Positions 11,457 through 40,622 of a stretch of 40,622 nt of DNA are shown one piece after another. The notes under the pieces were generated by a model. It saw only the letters and a program-made list of their open reading frames with translations, ran no database searches and had not been told where the DNA came from. Each line of letters starts with the position of its first letter. Position 1 is the first letter of the stretch. Source of the DNA: a virus. Lineage: Duplodnaviria > Heunggongvirae > Uroviricota > Caudoviricetes. The stretch spans positions 1-40,622 of the IMG/VR virus record IMGVR_UViG_2671180275_000009; one strand, given 5' to 3'. A program made the translations under genes and the position numbers.

Positions 11457-11460
11457 CCCC

Positions 11461-11490
11461 AAATCCCGCCACAACGCGGGATTTTTATTT
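11461..11490 (+). terminator. Rho-independent terminator candidate after gemA
   Basis: AAATCCCGC / GCGGGATTT stem, 6-nt loop, followed by TTTTATTTT. Confidence 0.6.
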
Positions 11491-11525
11491 TAAACTTACC
11501 GGGAACGCGAGAACCGGAGGCTGAT

Positions 11526-11951
11526 ATGGCAGAAACTCAGATGAGCATGTTTGGTGGTGACAGTGAGCAACTGCACGCCCTTATCGACCGCCTTGATGAC
11601 ATCCCTGATGATGTTCTCAAAAAGAACTGGCCGCGGACCCTGTCAGAACTGGTTGAAGTCACCGGCGCAGAACTTCAGCGTCAGGGGATTGAGCCGGTAC
11701 TGGCCGGCAAACTGGCACGCAAGGTGGCTGCGGCTCAGGCAGCCTATATGGGCGGACGGGGTTATTACCTGCCGGTCGGGGAATCTCTCTTTGCCGAGCT
11801 GCGAAACAATGAGATATTTTCGCGCTGGGACCGGGGCGAGAAAATTGAATCCCTTCGCCGCCATTACCGGATGTCAGAAACCCAGATTTATACCGTCATA
11901 CGCGAACAGCGCCGTCTGCATCTGGCAAGAACGCAACCGCCACTTTTCTGA
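11526..11951 (+). CDS. Mor/C-family transcription activator
   Basis: 141-aa ORF between gemA and lys with C-terminal HTH-like segment (RRHYRMSETQIYTVIREQRR); cannot assign Mor versus C. Confidence 0.6.
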   Translation: MAETQMSMFGGDSEQLHALIDRLDDIPDDVLKKNWPRTLSELVEVTGAELQRQGIEPVLAGKLARKVAAAQAAYMGGRGYYLPVGESLFAELRNNEIFSRWDRGEKIESLRRHYRMSETQIYTVIREQRRLHLARTQPPLF

Positions 11952-12022
11952 TATTCCGCAAAGCCTGCCGCCTTTCCTTCACCGTTACGCTGACTCAGAG
12001 AACATCATGAGACAGCGTAACA

Positions 12023-17838: not shown

Positions 17839-19147
17839 TCTGGGTTATGCCGCCACGCTTCCCTCAAAAGAGGCGGTGGCATACTTCCGCGCCAAAGGGG
17901 CGCATATCAGCTGGAACTGGTTCGAAACAGACGCGGATGTTCATGCCCGTTCATTCACGGCGGCAAAAGTGGCACGCCTGGACGTACTGACCACACTACA
18001 GGCGGAAGTGCAGCGTGCTGTTGATGAGGGGATTTCACAGAAAGCATTTATTCGCACGCTGACACCCCGCCTGCAAAAGCTGGGATGGTGGGGAAAACAG
18101 ATTGTGGTGGACAGTGCCGGTAACGCGGAAGAAGTGCAGCTGGGCAGTCCCCGCCGTCTGGCGCTGATTTACAACGTGAACACCCGTGTGGCTTACAATG
18201 CCGGGCGTTACACGCAGATGATGAACAACACGGACACGCATCCGTTCTGGCAGTATGTGGCGGTGATGGACAGCCGCACCCGCCCGGCACATTCCGCCTT
18301 TAACGGGCTGGTATTCCGCTATGACGATCCGTTCTGGAATACACACTACCCGCCCAATGGCTGGAACTGCCGCTGCCGTGTCCGGCCATTATCTCAGGCC
18401 CGTCTGGATGCAATGGGGTTATCCGTTTCATCCGGTCAGGATCATCTCTCCACCCGCAATGTTGAGGCTGGCGTGGATAAGCAGACCGGAGAAGTCAGAG
18501 AAATGCCGGTGACCACATATTCAGATGGCACCAGAACCATGACACCGGATGTGGGCTGGTCATATAACCCCGGTTCGGCGGCGTTCGGCACAGACCAGGC
18601 GCTGATCCGTAAACTGATCGAGGTGAAAAGCCCGGCGTTACGGGAAATGGTGGTTCAGGAGATGAACAACAGCCCGGAGCGGCAGCTGGCGTTCCGCATC
18701 TGGGCAAAAAACATCATGAAGACCCGGCGAGGTGGTCACGATATCCGCACGCTGGGCTTTATGACCGAAAGTATTGCGCAGGCGGTGGAAAGCCGGACGG
18801 GAACGCCACCGGCCCGCCTGCTGGCGATGAGCGGTAAAAATGTGCTCCATGCGGACAGCGTGAAACATCAGAATGACGGCATTGCCCTGACGCCGGAGGA
18901 TTTCGGGCGATTACCGGCAATGCTGGCCGCGCCTGATGCCGTGCTGTGGGATCATGTCCATCAGAATCTGCTTTACATCACTGAAACCCGTGACGGAACG
19001 GCAAAGATTGCCGTCAATGCGCCTTATAGTGTGAAACGTCAGCCGGATAAGCTGGATGTGGTGATTAATGCCTACAGAGTCAAAAAGGAGGCATTACTTG
19101 ATGATCTGCGCGGTGGAAAGCTGGAATTACTGGAGGGTGAATTGTAG
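17822..19147 (+). CDS. Head morphogenesis protein (Mu F / gp30-like)
   Basis: 441-aa ORF after portal, order-based assignment. Confidence 0.65.
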   Translation: MAQGIDLGYAATLPSKEAVAYFRAKGAHISWNWFETDADVHARSFTAAKVARLDVLTTLQAEVQRAVDEGISQKAFIRTLTPRLQKLGWWGKQIVVDSAGNAEEVQLGSPRRLALIYNVNTRVAYNAGRYTQMMNNTDTHPFWQYVAVMDSRTRPAHSAFNGLVFRYDDPFWNTHYPPNGWNCRCRVRPLSQARLDAMGLSVSSGQDHLSTRNVEAGVDKQTGEVREMPVTTYSDGTRTMTPDVGWSYNPGSAAFGTDQALIRKLIEVKSPALREMVVQEMNNSPERQLAFRIWAKNIMKTRRGGHDIRTLGFMTESIAQAVESRTGTPPARLLAMSGKNVLHADSVKHQNDGIALTPEDFGRLPAMLAAPDAVLWDHVHQNLLYITETRDGTAKIAVNAPYSVKRQPDKLDVVINAYRVKKEALLDDLRGGKLELLEGEL

Positions 19148-19231
19148 GTCGGTGGCGGGGGTCGAACCCGCATAAACATCCCTCAGGAAAAAACCATCAG
19201 GCGCCGCTTTACCAGTTAAGAGTACACCGAC
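19148..19231 (-). ncRNA. tRNA-like structure (acceptor stem plus T-arm) between the F-like and G-like genes
   Basis: On the minus strand: GTCGGTG ... GCGGG TTCGACC CCCGC CACCGAC, i.e. a perfect 7-bp acceptor stem and 5-bp T-stem with a TTCGA-type loop; D and anticodon arms are not canonical. Confidence 0.25.
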
Positions 19232-19269
19232 CTGCTTTTATTTTAACCAGGTAGTTTCACGGAGGCAAT

Positions 19270-19743
19270 ATGTCATCCATTGATGCCGCTGTCGTTGTTG
19301 ACGTTACGCGTCTCCAGCGGGTGTTTGCCCGGCTTCAGTTTGTGGGGGGCGGAAAAGACCTGGCCCGCAGTGTGGCGTCCAGCCTTCTGTCATCCTCAGA
19401 AATGGCGTTTGAACAGGAAAAAGAGCCGGACGGCGAACGCTGGCATGACTGGTCAGATCCTTACCGCAAGTGGCGTACCCGTAAGGGATACACGCCCGGC
19501 AAAATCCTGACGCTGAACGGCGATCTGGCCCGCCGCCTGACCACGGATTATGGCGATACCTGGGCGCTGATTGGATCAAATGAACCTTATGCAGCCATTC
19601 ATCAGTGGGGTGGCCTGCCTGGTATGCCACCGGGACTGGCAGCCATTGGCGCACGTCCGTATATGGGCTTTGATGAGGTGGCTGAACAGGAGATCATGGA
19701 CGAAATCAGAAAACGCTTTAAAAAGGCCACAGAAACGCCTTAA
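19270..19743 (+). CDS. Mu G (gp31)-like virion protein
   Basis: 157-aa ORF in the Mu G position. Confidence 0.5.
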   Translation: MSSIDAAVVVDVTRLQRVFARLQFVGGGKDLARSVASSLLSSSEMAFEQEKEPDGERWHDWSDPYRKWRTRKGYTPGKILTLNGDLARRLTTDYGDTWALIGSNEPYAAIHQWGGLPGMPPGLAAIGARPYMGFDEVAEQEIMDEIRKRFKKATETP

Positions 19744-19919
19744 TTGTTTAAGGTATGCAAATGCATTACCTTACCCCCTTCAGGCGCGTGTCGTGATTTT
19801 CTAACCTGTATTTAACGGGCTTTAAAATCTGCGTGAAGCGCCTTTGTATTTTTCCCCTGAAAGCACTTCCTGAAATCCCGCAAAACCCGCCCTGAAAATT
19901 CCCGGCTTATGCTGCCGGA

Positions 19920-21044
19920 ATGAAGACGAAAAACACGCCCAAACTTGCTTATGCCATTCTGAATGCCATCAGCCTGTCCGCAGACGGGGACGGTGACTGG
20001 TGTCAGATCATGCCAGCCGGTCGGGTAAAGGCCCGTGACGGTCGCCCGGAAAAACCGGCTGAAGGCTGGCTGATTAACCGTGCGACCGTTGAGCGCATGG
20101 TATCCCGGGTTGTGGCGCTCAATCAGCCGGTAAAAATTGACTACAACCACCAGACCCTGATTAAGGGGCATCAGGCACCGGCTGCCGGTTTTGTGACGGC
20201 TTCACCGGAAAACTTCCGCTTCAGTGAAGAGCGTGGCTTCGAGGTGCGCCCGAAGTGGAACCCTCCGGCCCTTGAACATCTGCGTAATAACGAATTCCCC
20301 TGGTTTTCACCGGTGATTGGCTATGACGAGAACACCGGCGAACCTGTCGAACTTCGGATGCTGGCTATTACCGGTGACCCCGGTCTGACCGGCATGAATC
20401 CTGTCGCCGCGCTGTCGGCGGATGACCTTTATAACGCCTTAAACCCTCCTTTAAAGGATACCTCCATGAATGAGCAATTACGCCAGTTGCTGACGGCGCT
20501 CGGTCTGACCGTGGCTGACGGTGACGAATTTACGCCGGAGCTGGGCACGGCGGCGCTGTCTGCCCTCACCGGGATCAAAACCCGTGCGGATGCACACGAC
20601 AACCTGAAAACACAGGTCGCCAGTCTGTCGGCAGAGCTGGAAACCGCAAAAGGCACACCGGCTGGCGGCAGTATTGATCTGACGAAATACGTGCCCGTTG
20701 AGACGTATAACGCCCTGCGTACCGAATATGTCGCGCTGTCGGCACAGCACGGCAGCACCACGCTGGAGCAGTTGCTGGATAAGGCCGAGTCCGAAGGACG
20801 CATTTTCAAAAGCGAACGCGGATACATGGAAGGACTCGGACAACAGATTGGCGTTGCAGCACTTTCTGCGCAGCTTGACGCCCGCCAGCCGGTTGCGGCT
20901 CTGACCGGTCTTCAGACCGACACCGTGACCGTGCCGGATAAAAAGACCGCCACCGCCTCGCTGTCGGCTGAAGATATCGCCGCCGCCCATCTTCTGGGTA
21001 AAACCGAAGCCGAATTCCTGAAAATGAAAGAGGAAATGCAATAA
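19920..21044 (+). CDS. Head maturation protease / scaffold (Mu I, gp32-like)
   Basis: 374-aa ORF directly upstream of the major head gene, with coiled-coil C-terminal half. Confidence 0.7.
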   Translation: MKTKNTPKLAYAILNAISLSADGDGDWCQIMPAGRVKARDGRPEKPAEGWLINRATVERMVSRVVALNQPVKIDYNHQTLIKGHQAPAAGFVTASPENFRFSEERGFEVRPKWNPPALEHLRNNEFPWFSPVIGYDENTGEPVELRMLAITGDPGLTGMNPVAALSADDLYNALNPPLKDTSMNEQLRQLLTALGLTVADGDEFTPELGTAALSALTGIKTRADAHDNLKTQVASLSAELETAKGTPAGGSIDLTKYVPVETYNALRTEYVALSAQHGSTTLEQLLDKAESEGRIFKSERGYMEGLGQQIGVAALSAQLDARQPVAALTGLQTDTVTVPDKKTATASLSAEDIAAAHLLGKTEAEFLKMKEEMQ

Positions 21045-28220: not shown

Positions 28221-29622
28221 CGGCAAGGGGTCGTTTCGCGGTGTGCCATTCCTGGTATTTCGCGAACAGCGTGAACGCGGTGGGCGTAATATCGTTCGCC
28301 GGGAATATCCGTTACAGGAACGGGGCGGTGCAGATGATCTGGGGCCAAAACTGCCGGAATACACCTTCACCGTACTGGTGATGGGAGAGGATGTTCACAC
28401 GCAACGAAGCCGTCTTCGGGATGCCCTTCGCGCCCCCGGGCCGGGTGAACTTATGCACCCGGAATATGGCACTTTAAACGTGATGATAAACAGCTTTGAA
28501 AGCCGTTACAGCGCCGATGAACAGCGCATTGTTGAATTCACAATTAATGTGTCTCCGGTCAGTGATGAAACAGCGCCAACGGCCAGCCAGGATACGGCTG
28601 CACTTCTGGAGGCCAGAAGTGGTGCAGCCCTGAACAGCATGTTTGGTACGCTGGCAAGTGGCTGGACCGTCATTTCCGATGGTATGCATGATGTGCAGGC
28701 AATGGCTGAAACCATCAGTGACAAAATTGAGGCGCTGGAAAATTCCGTTTCCGGGATGGGGATTGTGCAGGATATCAGTGCCTTTACGGCCACGTTTACG
28801 GCGCTTAAAGGTAACGTTACCGCATTGCTCACAAGTCCGCAGCGAATGGCGGAATCACTGGCGGGTATGTTTGTCACCCTGACGGCATTACCCACGATCC
28901 CTGCGCTCTCCCTTACCCGGAAGAATACCGGCAGTACCGTAACCGGTGCTTCCGGGGGGAATGGCGGTACGGTTTACACCAGAGGCAGTGGAGGCGAATT
29001 GCCCGCAGGGAGTCTGGATGTGGTGATGCAGAGCACCCTTGAACAGGGACTTCCTCAGCTCTACAGAACCTTATCCTCCCTGCGTTATGCGCTGACAGAA
29101 CAGGATGATCCACAGCGTCTGATTGGGCTTACCCCGCCAGCTCAACAAAATATCCGGCTTCTCAGGGCAGTGATGCAGAGTGCAGCCGTGGTGTCTCAGG
29201 CTCAGACAGTGGGAAAATTGCTGGATCAGGTAATCAGTCTTGAAACAGCCCGGACAAGTAATAACACGAAGTCAGCCGGTCTTGTCTGGCTGGAAAGTGC
29301 CGCAGATGTTGAGCGTATCAACCGTGATTTGAGTGATGCGCTTGAATTACAGGTCATGGATTTGTCTGCGCTGGGGTATACCTCCACAGCCCTGACTCTC
29401 AGGGATGCCCGCCTGGCGTTGACAGAAGATCTTACGGTCAGGGCGGTCTCCCTGCCGGGGGCTGTACAGGTATCCGTCCGGGCGACAGAACCTGCACTGG
29501 TAACCCTGTACCGTGAAACAGGAAACAGCACCCGCTGGCAACATTTTGTGCGTCGTAACAACATTTCAGACCCGCTTTTTGTGCCGGGGGGAAGTACTGT
29601 GGAGGTGATCAGTGAACAGTAA
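28207..29622 (+). CDS. DNA circularisation protein-like (Mu N / gp43 family)
   Basis: ~471-aa ORF starting MSTGDGKGSF; track start 28105 overlaps tape measure and is probably an extension. Confidence 0.6.
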   Translation: MSTGDGKGSFRGVPFLVFREQRERGGRNIVRREYPLQERGGADDLGPKLPEYTFTVLVMGEDVHTQRSRLRDALRAPGPGELMHPEYGTLNVMINSFESRYSADEQRIVEFTINVSPVSDETAPTASQDTAALLEARSGAALNSMFGTLASGWTVISDGMHDVQAMAETISDKIEALENSVSGMGIVQDISAFTATFTALKGNVTALLTSPQRMAESLAGMFVTLTALPTIPALSLTRKNTGSTVTGASGGNGGTVYTRGSGGELPAGSLDVVMQSTLEQGLPQLYRTLSSLRYALTEQDDPQRLIGLTPPAQQNIRLLRAVMQSAAVVSQAQTVGKLLDQVISLETARTSNNTKSAGLVWLESAADVERINRDLSDALELQVMDLSALGYTSTALTLRDARLALTEDLTVRAVSLPGAVQVSVRATEPALVTLYRETGNSTRWQHFVRRNNISDPLFVPGGSTVEVISEQ

Positions 29623-36144: not shown

Positions 36145-38184
36145 ATGACGTCCAAATGGGTTCAACTATCATCAATGCCCGGAAACTTTACTGTTAAAGT
36201 TTCCGGTGGTACAGCGGCATTTCTTGAGGCTCCCTTTCCTCCGGCCGAAACAAAAGGAGGAATGACATTTGCTGACTGTCTCATCAGTTTTAATACACGG
36301 GATTGCCTGTGGGTAAGGCCAGTATCCGGTGATCCGAGCGTGGAAATTACCGGTGCGGGTATTGGTGCTGTCATTCCGTTAAGTGCTGATGTTGCCGGTA
36401 CTGCTGAACCGTCAGACTGGGATAATGCTGAAACACATACCCGTCCGTCAGGAAATGAAACTGCTTCCAGCTCCCCTTCCTGGTATTACGTGGTGGTTCT
36501 TGCTGGTCAGTCAAACGGGATGGCCTACGGTGAAGGTCTGCCGCTGCCGGAGACATATGACCGCCCCGAACCGCGTATTATGCAGTTAGCCCGTCGCAGT
36601 ACAGTCACGCCGGGAGGTAAAGCCTGTCAGTATAACGACATCATTCTGGCCGACCACTGTCTGCATGATGTGCAGGATATGAGTGGAAAAAATCACCCGA
36701 AAGCGGATGTGGCTAAAGGGCAATATGGCACCGTGGGTCAGGGGCTTCACATTGCCAAAAAACTGCTGCCGTTTATTCCGGCAGATGCGGGGATTCTGCT
36801 GGTTCCCTGCTGCCGTGGTGGTTCTGCATTCACGGCGGGTGCTGACGGCACGTACAGTGACAGCACGGGTGCTTCAGAGGACTCAGCCCGCTGGGGTGTG
36901 GATAAGCCGCTGTATAAGGACTTAATCAGCCGGACAAAAGCGGCACTGGCGAAGAACCCGAAAAACCGCCTGCTTGCTGTGGTGTGGATGCAGGGCGAGT
37001 TTGATATTGATGCGAAGCCGACGGAGCATTCCGCGCTGTTTCTGGCGATGGTGGAAAAATTCCGCGCAGACCTGGCTGAACAGGCGGAACAGTGTACCGG
37101 TGGCAGTGCTGCTGGCGTTCCGTGGATTTGTGGCGATACCACGTATTTCTGGAAACAGAAAAACGAACAGGCATACCAGGCAATCTATGACGGCTACAAA
37201 AATAAAACAGATAAAAACATTCATTTCGTCCCATTAATGACAGATGAAAATGGCGCGAATGTACCCACCAACAATCCGACAGAAGACCCGGATATTGAAT
37301 CCATTGGTTATTACGGCTCAACGTGGCGTAACAGTGCCGCCACCTGGACATCTGCGGGCCGGGCCAGCCATTTCAGTTCATGGGCACGTCGTGGGATTAT
37401 TTCCGACCGTCTGGCCACGGCTGTTCTGACTCATGCAGGGCGAACCACAGTAAAAGCCGATGTTCCATCTTCTGAAACTGAAGCACCAGTGCCGTCACCT
37501 TCAGAAACTGAAGCAGTAACCACAACACTGCTGTCTTACCGTGTCAGTGAGTCAGAAGGAAATCTGAAAGCCCAGGGCTGGGAGCCGGCTGGCGGTAAAG
37601 CTGAAATTATCAGTGATGCAGGAGGCACAGGTGGTAAGGCAATGAAACTGACCAAGGAAACAGGTAAATCATCCTGGTATCTGGATCATGATGCCGGTAC
37701 TGGTGCTGAACTGCTGAAAAATGGTGGTTTAATCAGTTGTCGTTTTAAAGTACCTGGCGACCTGGTGGCAAACCAGTATGTCATGGCGCTTTACTGGCCG
37801 GTTTCCTCTCTGCCGCAGGGTGTCACCCTGACAGGGGATGCAGGGAATAATCTGCTGGCATCGTTCTACATCCAGACAGACGCAAAAGACCTGAATGTGA
37901 TGCACCACAATGCAAAAGTGGCAACAAATAACCAGAAACTGGGAACCTTTGGTGTATTTGATAATGAATGGCATACGCTGGCCTTCCGTTTTGCAGGAAA
38001 TAACAGCCTTCAGGTTATTCCGGTTATTGATGGTCAGGATGGTGCCGCGTTTACCCTGACGCAGTCACCAGTAGGAACTTTCCCGGTGGACAAACTCCGC
38101 GTAACGGATATCACCAAAAATGCAACTTACCCGGTGCTGATTGACAGCATTGTGGTGGAAGTGAAAAAAGCGGTAACAGAATAA
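36145..38184 (+). CDS. Putative carbohydrate O-acetylesterase (SGNH/SASA family, NanS-like) with additional N- and C-terminal domains
   Basis: 679-aa ORF with YYVVVLAGQSNGMAYGEG (GQSN active-site motif of sialate O-acetylesterase-type hydrolases); GATAAT -10-like element upstream. Confidence 0.55.
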   Translation: MTSKWVQLSSMPGNFTVKVSGGTAAFLEAPFPPAETKGGMTFADCLISFNTRDCLWVRPVSGDPSVEITGAGIGAVIPLSADVAGTAEPSDWDNAETHTRPSGNETASSSPSWYYVVVLAGQSNGMAYGEGLPLPETYDRPEPRIMQLARRSTVTPGGKACQYNDIILADHCLHDVQDMSGKNHPKADVAKGQYGTVGQGLHIAKKLLPFIPADAGILLVPCCRGGSAFTAGADGTYSDSTGASEDSARWGVDKPLYKDLISRTKAALAKNPKNRLLAVVWMQGEFDIDAKPTEHSALFLAMVEKFRADLAEQAEQCTGGSAAGVPWICGDTTYFWKQKNEQAYQAIYDGYKNKTDKNIHFVPLMTDENGANVPTNNPTEDPDIESIGYYGSTWRNSAATWTSAGRASHFSSWARRGIISDRLATAVLTHAGRTTVKADVPSSETEAPVPSPSETEAVTTTLLSYRVSESEGNLKAQGWEPAGGKAEIISDAGGTGGKAMKLTKETGKSSWYLDHDAGTGAELLKNGGLISCRFKVPGDLVANQYVMALYWPVSSLPQGVTLTGDAGNNLLASFYIQTDAKDLNVMHHNAKVATNNQKLGTFGVFDNEWHTLAFRFAGNNSLQVIPVIDGQDGAAFTLTQSPVGTFPVDKLRVTDITKNATYPVLIDSIVVEVKKAVTE

Positions 38185-39415: not shown

Positions 39416-39601
39416 ATGTATCGAAACATACGGTGCCGACACTGCAATAAGCTACTGGCACGGGCCAGTTTCAGTTATCTGGAAGTAAAATGTCCGCGCT
39501 GCAAAACCCTCAATCAAATCACATCTCAGAGCGCCACAGAGCACCCCACATACACAAGGAAATCCTGCCGTGGGGAACAAGAAACATTACTTTCAGTCTG
39601 A
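39416..39601 (+). CDS. com: Com-like zinc-finger translational activator
   Basis: MYRNIRCRHCNKLLARASFSYLEVKCPRCK closely resembles my recollection of Mu Com (IRCKNCNKLL...IEIRCPRCK); GGAGG RBS; 3' end overlaps the next gene. Confidence 0.8.
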   Translation: MYRNIRCRHCNKLLARASFSYLEVKCPRCKTLNQITSQSATEHPTYTRKSCRGEQETLLSV

Positions 39602-40622
39602 TAAGTCACTAACCTATGGTTCAGTATGCAGTGGTATTGAAGCTGCGACAGTAGCCTGGAGCAATCTTGGCTGGAAAGCCAGATGGTTCAGTGAAATAGA
39701 GGACTTCCCGTCAACACTTCTTTCATATCGCTGGCCCCATATACCAAATCTTGGTGATATGGCTTTGCTTGCGCCTCGTATCAGGGATGGGCTTATTGAA
39801 GCACCAGATATTCTTGTAGGTGGAACTCCGTGTCAGGCATTCAGTATGTCAGGCAAACGAAAAGGCCTTTCAGATCCACGGGGGCAGTTAACACTGTCTT
39901 TTGTTGAACTGGCGAATCAGATAGATACCGTTCGGGCATCGCTCAATAAATCCCCCTCAATAATCGTATGGGAAAACGTCACAGGAGTTTTAAGTAGCCA
40001 TGACAATGCATTCGGTCATTTTCTTGGTGCGCTGGCCGGAGCAGGTTGCGCATTACAGCCAGCAAGGAAAAGATGGGCAAACGCTGGTGTTGTGTCTGGA
40101 CCATCGCGTATCGTCGCCTGGCGAGTACTTGATGCCCAATATTTCGGAGTCGCCCAGGCTCGCAGAAGAGTGTTTGTTGTGGCAAGTGCTGGAAAAAGGC
40201 TCGATCCCGGAAAGGTATTATTTGAGTTCCCGCCTGTGTCGCAGGGCGATAAAAACTATTACGGAAAGAAGAAAAAATCCGAATCCCTTCTTGATCAAGG
40301 CATTGAAGGAAAATTGCACCGATATTGCCTTGAAGCATTGCCAAAACGAACAGGCACAGTAATAGCTGGCTATAACGGAACAACTAACCAGGACATGACT
40401 ATGTCTGGTGGGCTCATAGTTGAAAGAGCGCCATATTCAAGGGTTCGTAGGTTGACGCCAACCGAATGCGAGAGGCTACAAGGTTTTCCCGATGGATATA
40501 CAGATATTCCATGGAAAAATTCATCTCCAGCTCATCGTTATAAGGCCATTGGAAATTCAATGCCTGTACCGGTCATGAAATGGATTGGTCGAAGAATACA
40601 GGAAGCGTTAAACGAAGTTTAA
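39570..40622 (+). CDS. C5-cytosine DNA methyltransferase (GTG start overlapping com)
   Basis: Motifs GGTPCQAFS (catalytic PCQ), IVWENV, QARRRVF and IGNSMPVPV in canonical order; stop codon is the last triplet of the window. Confidence 0.85.
   Translation: MGNKKHYFQSDKSLTYGSVCSGIEAATVAWSNLGWKARWFSEIEDFPSTLLSYRWPHIPNLGDMALLAPRIRDGLIEAPDILVGGTPCQAFSMSGKRKGLSDPRGQLTLSFVELANQIDTVRASLNKSPSIIVWENVTGVLSSHDNAFGHFLGALAGAGCALQPARKRWANAGVVSGPSRIVAWRVLDAQYFGVAQARRRVFVVASAGKRLDPGKVLFEFPPVSQGDKNYYGKKKKSESLLDQGIEGKLHRYCLEALPKRTGTVIAGYNGTTNQDMTMSGGLIVERAPYSRVRRLTPTECERLQGFPDGYTDIPWKNSSPAHRYKAIGNSMPVPVMKWIGRRIQEALNEV

Follow-up and report, generated by a model that had tools for sequence, protein, structure and literature searches.

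Between the G-like and I-like genes of a Mu-like prophage of E. coli lies a non-coding stretch of 176 nt. What is it for? In Mu and FluMu, the gyrase site lies between G and I (PMC2628397). An earlier note on this DNA had described the gap as untranslated, had placed it where Mu has its G-I interval and near the centre of the element, and had suggested that it contains a Mu-like strong gyrase site and a C-dependent late promoter for I. Here, we follow up these suggestions in the window, by which we mean the whole 40,622-nt stretch of DNA that was analysed. We conclude that the gap is very probably a control region in two parts, a strong gyrase site and the late promoter of I, in a Mu-like prophage of the Sp18 type.

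The gap and its flanking genes

The limits of the open reading frames set the G-I gap at 19744-19919, a non-coding interval of 176 nt. It is flanked as follows.

19270-19743, + strand: G-like virion morphogenesis gene (157 aa; Pfam Phage_tail_S, E 2e-33; stop codon 19741-19743)
19920-21044, + strand: I-like protease/scaffold gene (374 aa; Pfam Mu-like_Pro, E 1.3e-75; ATG at 19920)

The G-like gene has about 70% DNA identity to Mu G, and the pair is neighboured by homologues of the portal, F, T and gp36 genes in the Mu order. In near-identical prophages, namely Sakai Sp18 (29233-29408, also 176 nt) and that of strain CP55_Sichuan, RefSeq leaves the interval unannotated. Reading-frame limits, Pfam matches and the RefSeq annotation of relatives thus confirm that the gap is untranslated, and the G and I homologues on its two sides (Pfam) put it in the same place as the G-I interval of Mu. 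It is the largest intergenic gap in the Sp18 structural gene block, where most neighbouring genes abut or overlap. Nineteen relatives have gaps of 175-177 nt that carry indels at 19847-19850, and no frame is therefore maintained across the interval. Rfam covariance models gave no match within 19744-19919 at E up to 1, a tRNA reading of the gap was negative, and the k-mers common to the gap and the remaining window are mostly noise.

The prophage, its ends and its centre

The window carries an Sp18-type Mu-like transposable prophage, inserted in E. coli malZ. Its left end is placed as follows.

1590-1616, + strand: prophage left end, TGTAACC..., including the first of the TTTGATACYG repeats (identity to host malZ runs to 1591; Sp18 left-end homology runs from 1590)

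Host malZ occupies positions 1-1591 and is 100% identical to many E. coli genomes. Among 5,426 complete E. coli genomes, there is no match spanning the malZ junction (1590-1592) and no Mu-like insertion at that point. On the other side, the window ends with the stop codon of the cytosine methyltransferase gene downstream of com. One genome matches the last 1.3 kb of the window at 100% identity; there, the prophage continues for about 164 nt past the window end, via two CGGTATCAAA repeats, and this continuation stops where the Sp18 right-end homology stops. We therefore infer that the right end lies about 164 nt beyond the window. With the left end at 1590 and the right end taken from relatives, the element would be about 39.2 kb long. 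The predicted gyrase cut, described below, then falls at 0.464 of the element length (0.472 in Sp18 and 0.487 in Mu), 18.2 kb in from the left end and about 1.4 kb to the left of the exact centre. The idea that the gap lies near the centre of the element thus holds approximately.

The surroundings of the gap are not rare. A 600-nt segment around it has 229 matching records from 228 of the 5,426 complete E. coli genomes (about 4%), many of them O157:H7, and identity over the 600 nt is 95-100% in 218 of these records. The right end is more particular. At 39417-40622, com is followed by a gene for a 350-aa DNA cytosine methyltransferase in place of mom; this right-end module is present in 10 of 235 matching records (233 genomes), and the remainder match the com part only. 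Between the invertase gene and com, at 36145-38184, lies a gene for a 679-aa protein, assigned to DUF6645 in relatives, which is accessory cargo without a Mu counterpart.

The F-G boundary also departs from that of Mu. In Mu, F and G overlap and leave no gap, whereas in the window they are separated by 122 nt (19148-19269). A sub-threshold tRNA-like match to RF00005 is seen there on the minus strand at 19147-19231 (27.4 bits, where the gathering score is 29; E 0.003). RefSeq annotates a 'tRNA-OTHER' at the corresponding F-G site in strain CP55_Sichuan, and ARAGORN called nothing at 19147-19231.

A probable Mu-type gyrase site in the left part of the gap

When the gap was compared with the whole Mu genome by blastn, the best match paired 19792-19818 with Mu 17908-17934 (85% over 27 nt, E 0.001). 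The same pair came back when the Mu gap was compared with the whole window, which makes it a reciprocal best match. In both phages the 27 nt occupy nucleotides 49-75 after the G stop codon. The likeness is short and, taken alone, its significance is modest (E about 1e-3). Pairwise alignment of the G-I regions with short coding flanks, which is gapped, gives a mean column identity of 72%, and the similar block within it reads GCGCGTGTCGTGATTTTCTAACCTGTATTTAACGG in the window and ACGCGCCACGGGATTTTTAAACCGGTATTTAACGG in Mu. From a GG(C/T)AT motif to the CGCG block, the distance is 32 nt in both. The gap can therefore be aligned with the Mu G-I region, a check that the earlier note had proposed, at the same offset from the G stop.

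The Mu gyrase cut is annotated at 17879/17880, which places the matched block in the right arm of the site. This is the part that matters most in Mu, where the right arm is essential and the left arm can be deleted (PMC10052514; PMC13284261). In the gyrase motif, periodic arms at +24 to +66 wrap the C-terminal domain of GyrA, and the Mu 133-mer given in the supplement of the same study is centred on the annotated cut (PMC6379681). By this register, the following elements are assigned in the window.

19750-19772, no strand: imperfect palindrome AAGGTATGCAAATGCATTACCTT, predicted gyrase G-segment (placed in register with Mu, by homology only)
19776-19844, no strand: nearly invariant block, read as the right arm of the gyrase site, wrapping the GyrA C-terminal domain (conservation and match to Mu)

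The 4-bp staggered cut is predicted at about 19760-19763, AATG (AATC in Mu). Its placement follows from the annotated Mu cut, the centre of the 133-mer, and the spacing that is kept from both the GG(C/T)AT motif and the right-arm block. The 3′ end of the G-like gene would then form the left arm.

How similar is the gap to gyrase sites that have been put to use in the laboratory? Oram and Pato are said to have studied the Sakai Sp18 strong gyrase site in 2004. The fragment tested from the Sakai prophage was presumably the Sp18 G-I gap. Two published accounts are consistent with this identification (PMC2628397; PMC10052514). Of the heterologous gyrase sites that Pato put in Mu, that of the Sakai O157:H7 prophage alone promoted replication, according to the review of Toussaint and Higgins (PMC10052514). 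The gap in the window is identical to the Sp18 G-I gap at 174 of 176 positions, including the whole of its first 116 nt. The two differences, at 19860 (A for G) and 19907 (T for C), both lie outside the gyrase-site part. Together, the homology to the Mu right arm and the near-identity to the Sakai Sp18 gap support the assignment of the left part of the gap, about 19750-19844, as a strong gyrase site of the Mu type, as the earlier note had supposed.

Motif scores were computed as well. We built a stand-in score from the weak/strong-base pattern of the 133-nt Topo-seq consensus, as distinct from the published position matrix; it gave z = 2.25 at the predicted centre, and the true Mu site itself scored z = 3.2 and did not come first. 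A/T periodicity (10-11.5 bp) is unremarkable over the right arm in both phages. In the promoter half of the gap, the stretch 19849-19938 has the second-highest 11.5-bp A/T periodicity in the window and the strongest in the gap, and its source is a series of CCTGAAA-type A-tracts at 19856, 19869, (19882) and 19891, phased at about 11.5 bp. This periodicity may come from a promoter that is intrinsically bent, or the gyrase wrap may extend this far.

Conservation of the putative right arm

IMG/VR supplied 28 related loci, and the alignment was made from the 19 distinct sequences of the Sp18 family; a scan of genome contigs with the I protein yielded nothing confirmable. Variable columns among the 19 relatives are distributed unevenly along the gap.

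19745-19769: 7 of 25 columns variable
19770-19844: 4 of 75 columns variable
19845-19869: 15 of 26 columns variable, with indels in the T/C run
19870-19919: 10 of 50 columns variable

Outside the block in which 4 of 75 columns vary, the gap has 31 variable columns in 101; Fisher's test gives p 1.7e-5, a rough value because the relatives are not independent samples. Within the palindrome that contains the predicted cut region (19750-19772), 6 of the 23 columns vary. In the middle of the right arm, a 34-nt core at 19785-19818, CGCGnnnCGnnnTTTTnnAAnnnGTnTTnAACGG, is common to three lineages in a MAFFT alignment: Mu/D108, the Sp18 family, and a group consisting of loci L026, L031 and L032 (hereafter the L026 group). 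The I proteins of these lineages have diverged considerably, with about 62-71% identity to that of the window in the L026 group and about 46-47% in Mu/D108.

What kind of constraint is at work? RNAalifold found no shared structure in the conserved block over the three lineages (0 pairs). Since this search, the terminator scan (see below) and the Rfam search were all negative, the constraint is best read as acting on DNA sequence and not on an RNA fold.

Two further observations concern the layout of the region. In the L026 group, at about 2400-2440, GGCAT lies about 10 bp, or one helical turn, nearer to the CGCG block than in Mu and Sp18, and the cleavage centre may be shifted in that lineage. 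The second observation concerns the segment that joins the two halves of the gap.

19845-19869, no strand: hypervariable linker with a T/C run (length and composition change among relatives)

The T/C run, TTTTTCCCC at 19847-19857, appears among relatives as T5C4, TC7, C9 and T4C3. Lying between the gyrase site and the promoter, this homopolymer-like tract seems to have varied by slippage or hypermutation.

A probable C-type late promoter in the right part of the gap

Mu has a C-dependent late promoter for I, P_I, reportedly described by Margolin et al. in 1989, and its record annotates P_I at 17977-18043. The Mu Plys, PI and PP sequences are available as 92-mers with 20 nt downstream of the mapped start (PMC4461284). 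Counted from these starts, the three promoters share one layout, with CCATAAYCCC at -43 to -34, a spacer of 20 nt, and a hexamer at -13 to -8 (TAGACT, CAAACT, TATCCT). The position of the box agrees with the C site, which is centred at -43.5 (PMC2582627). In the 36.7-kb Mu genome, a pattern with this layout has three matches, which are Plys, PI and PP themselves.

In the window, 19878-19913 reads CCGCAAAACC-N20-TATGCT. The elements of this candidate promoter, its sister before the lysozyme gene (lys), and the gene for the presumed activator are as follows.

19870-19887, + strand: predicted binding site for a C-like activator, CTGAAATCCCGCAAAACC, of which 19878-19887 form the core box CCGCAAAACC (likeness to the lys site; MAFFT)
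19888-19907, + strand: 20-nt promoter spacer (length 20 in all relatives; 8 of 20 positions vary)
19908-19913, + strand: predicted -10 hexamer TATGCT (invariant among relatives; without a -35 hexamer)
11956-11991, + strand: predicted sister late promoter before the lysozyme gene, CCGCAAAGCC-N20-TACGCT (box at 11956-11965)
11526-11951, + strand: C-like late activator of the Mor/C family, presumed reader of the box (39% identity to Mu C, E 4e-35; 27% to Mor)

The core box CCGCAAAACC is invariant in the 19 relatives, and MAFFT pairs it with the Mu box GCATAACCCC; box, spacer and hexamer align without gaps across Mu, D108, the Sp18 family and the L026 group. A generic sigma-70 scan found no -35/-10 pair in the region, which is expected if the promoter depends on an activator. 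Two other candidates in the region, GAAAAT (19894-19899) as the -10 hexamer and the dyad GAAAGCACTTCC as the activator site, were dropped, as their positions vary among relatives.

The sequence upstream of lys, CTGATATTCCGCAAAGCC-N20-TACGCT-GACTCAGAGAA, contains nearly the same activator site as the I promoter, and its hexamer and start region resemble those of Mu Plys (TAGACT-GCCATCAGAGAA). In relatives, the lys promoter has either CCGCAAAGCC or CCGCAAATCC as its box (one position, G or T), an invariant hexamer, and a spacing of 20 nt with several variable positions. The combined pattern CCGCAAARCC-N20-TAYGCT has exactly two perfect matches in the window, one before lys and one before I; a third, P_P-like copy was not found in the window. 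Shuffled sequences give an expectation of 0.015 for this pattern, a figure that overstates its significance because the pattern was defined from the two sites themselves.

Counterparts of the C-like gene are annotated in relatives as Mor family or late positive regulator. The box CCGCAAARCC is not the CCATAAYCCC of Mu C, and the two have in common only CC..AA..CC. This is consistent with a cognate variant for a diverged activator, rather than a site for Mu C itself. Overall, the box-N20-hexamer arrangement, which is that of the three mapped Mu promoters, together with the C homologue encoded in the same element, supports the view that 19870-19913 is a C-type late promoter for I, and the earlier suggestion of such a promoter stands. 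The same note had cautioned that no sequence signature could be asserted; that caveat can now give way to explicit signatures, namely the right-arm core and the promoter box and hexamer.

The surroundings of the activator gene have features of their own. Upstream of it, at 11457-11525, a terminator-like hairpin, AATCCCGC-CACAA-GCGGGATT, is followed by a T run and is overlapped by a degenerate late-box-like site, CCCCAAATCC-N19-TATTTT. In two related prophages a single Mor/C-family gene is annotated, whereas Mu has both Mor and C; the regulatory cascade may therefore be shorter in these prophages.

Missing leader bases and a hairpin before I

The distance from the promoter to the I gene sets the window apart from Mu. 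In the MAFFT alignment, the Sp18 family and the L026 group lack 26 nt that are present in Mu/D108 between the hexamer region and the ATG. In Mu/D108, this 26-nt leader carries a hairpin, CTGCTCA...TGAGCAG, and an AGGA ribosome-binding site. In the other two lineages, hexamer, 6 nt and start codon follow directly upon one another, as TATGCT-GCCGGA-ATG in the Sp18 family and CACACT-GGCGGC-ATG in the L026 group. There is no usable ribosome-binding site before I, the GGA directly abutting the ATG. Since the leader of Mu is absent, the predicted first base of the transcript is 19920, the A of the I start codon, if the hexamer is taken as -12 to -7, or the next base by the Mu geometry (-13 to -8).

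The hexamer is itself bracketed by a short repeat.

19902-19918, + strand: inverted repeat CCGGC-TTATGCT-GCCGG (brackets the -10 hexamer and abuts the start codon)

As RNA, this repeat would fold with -10 kcal/mol; its arms are invariant, and the difference from Sp18 falls in the loop. Mu and the L026 group likewise have a hairpin just 5′ of the I start. With the start predicted above, the hairpin of the window would exist on read-through transcripts only, directly before the AUG. An internally initiated scaffold product is known for Mu's Z. As a tentative proposal, which we regard as somewhat on the doubtful side, the late I mRNA may be leaderless in Sp18-type prophages and, independently, in the L026 group, and the hairpin on read-through from the lysis operon may lower the level of full-length protease relative to any internally initiated scaffold product and the downstream head genes.

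Alternative explanations

Other readings of the gap have to be weighed against the bipartite one. With respect to the promoter, the late start might lie nearer 19894, with TCCCGCAAAAC as the -10 region, like TCCCGCAAACT of Mu, and a normal 26-nt leader. An ungapped alignment counted back from the ATG does place TCCCGCAAA at nearly equal distances in the two phages, 42 nt before the ATG in Mu and 43 nt before it in the window, and the resulting leader would hold a hairpin, as in Mu. Against this, the hexamer would be CAAAAC, without the conserved final T, and the box would have to lie at 19851-19860, in the most variable part of the gap, where indels occur. Moreover, CCGCAAARCC is found at -43 to -34 of the lys promoter as well, whose -10 and start region is homologous to Mu Plys, and MAFFT prefers to align box with box at the cost of a 26-nt gap. 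We consider the start near 19894 unlikely, and keep the promoter with its box at 19878-19887. A small protein encoded in the gap, on the model of gene 31.5 in the G-I gap of D108, is scarcely credible. The D108 record does annotate a 42-aa ORF there, and the mechanical ORFs that touch the gap in the window are two on the plus strand, of 23 aa (TTG, 19744-19815) and 20 aa (GTG, 19833-19895), and the tail of a 119-aa antisense ORF. Both of the plus-strand frames start with codons other than ATG, however, and the shorter is broken by indels and many substitutions at 19846-19869. RefSeq leaves the gap empty in Sp18-type prophages, and its conservation has no codon-like pattern.

The left part of the gap invites two further doubts. 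One is that the block 19776-19844 serves chiefly as a transcription stop or RNA 3′-end structure for the late transcript running from lys to G, and not as an arm for gyrase. In the record AF083977.1, a terminator predicted by TransTermHP is annotated at Mu 17908-17953, right on the homologous block, and on this account the terminator reading stays a minor rival. In addition, the RNA of the gap folds somewhat better than shuffled sequences (z = -3.07), with local hairpins at 19749-19773 and 19792-19833. A generic terminator scan of 19500-20100 found none, however, and the hairpin in the window is A/U-rich, has no U run after it, and reaches just z = -1.8. Over the three lineages, it is the primary sequence of the block that is conserved and not any pairing, and the literature assigns the function of the right arm to DNA (PMC10052514; PMC13284261). 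This reading thus seems to us rather improbable, more so than the alternative start. The other doubt, to which we give even less credence, is that the gap consists of promoter and spacer only, and that its likeness to a gyrase site is an inherited relic without a role here. In favour of it, the site does not lie at the exact centre (0.464), relatives differ in the predicted cleavage core, and the stand-ins for the gyrase motif do not discriminate, at the true Mu site included. On the other hand, variation in the right arm is below that of the flanking coding DNA and far below that of the remaining gap, the arm has been kept across three lineages in spite of diverged I proteins (46-62% identity), and the identical Sakai sequence was reported to be functional in Mu (PMC10052514).

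Proposed function and comparison with known systems

How would such a bipartite region act? Bound by host DNA gyrase, the palindrome would hold the cleavage centre, near 19760-19763, and the enzyme would wrap the conserved right arm, 19776-19844, around the C-terminal domain of GyrA. Starting near the middle of the 39-kb element, it would then supercoil processively and extrude the prophage as a plectonemic loop, and this loop would bring the two prophage ends together for synapsis by the transposase and replicative transposition. In Mu, loss of the site reportedly delays replication by about 100 min. On the promoter side, a dimer of the C-like activator would sit on CTGAAATCCCGCAAAACC, whose box lies at about -43 to -34, and so let sigma-70 RNA polymerase use TATGCT without a -35 partner. 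In this way, the right third of the gap would drive I and the downstream head genes. The identity, position, conservation and promoter architecture on which this picture draws are seen in the window and its relatives. Its functional content comes from the literature on the near-identical Sakai site and on the mechanism of Mu, and the exact cut, the binding of the activator and the start point are our own inferences.

The finding is already known in kind, and for the gyrase site it is known in sequence too, from Sakai Sp18. The promoter half is what Mu P_I would lead one to expect, except that its box has diverged and, by our prediction, the leader is missing. Enterobacterial Mu-like prophages have, as a conserved feature, a near-central gyrase site beside the late promoter of I. 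The gap is of interest chiefly because it confirms this, and it leaves the current view of Mu biology unchanged. What it provides in addition is a 34-nt right-arm signature with which such sites may be located in other prophages, a candidate recognition box for the Sp18-type late activator (CCGCAAARCC-N20-TAYGCT), and the prediction of a leaderless I message in two lineages.

Sakai Sp18 shares with the element in the window its gene context, prophage family, end sequences and 176-nt gap, and the predicted cleavage core and right arm are fully identical in the two. They differ in host strain and in insertion site, Sp18 lying in sorM and the present element in malZ. The latter is also about 0.4 kb longer, and its right end has the cytosine methyltransferase gene instead of mom.

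The gyrase site of Mu likewise lies in the G-I gap, with the centre of the cut about 19 nt past the G stop and near the centre of the genome, and the right-arm signature CGCGnnnCGnnnTTTTnnAAnnnGTnTTnAACGG is equally distant from the core in Mu and in the window. Outside this 34-nt signature, the two gaps are largely unrelated; the core, for instance, reads AAGGTATGCAAATGCATT here and CAGGCATAAAATCAGCC in Mu. In Mu P_I as in the window, the distance from the gyrase cut rightward to the box is about 110-116 nt, and the box is followed by a 20-nt spacer and a -10 hexamer with A at its second and T at its sixth position. Both lack a -35 hexamer, and both have a sister promoter before lys and an activator of the Mor/C family. 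The box itself is CCGCAAAACC in the window and GCATAACCCC in Mu P_I, and the third, P_P-like site is peculiar to Mu in this comparison.
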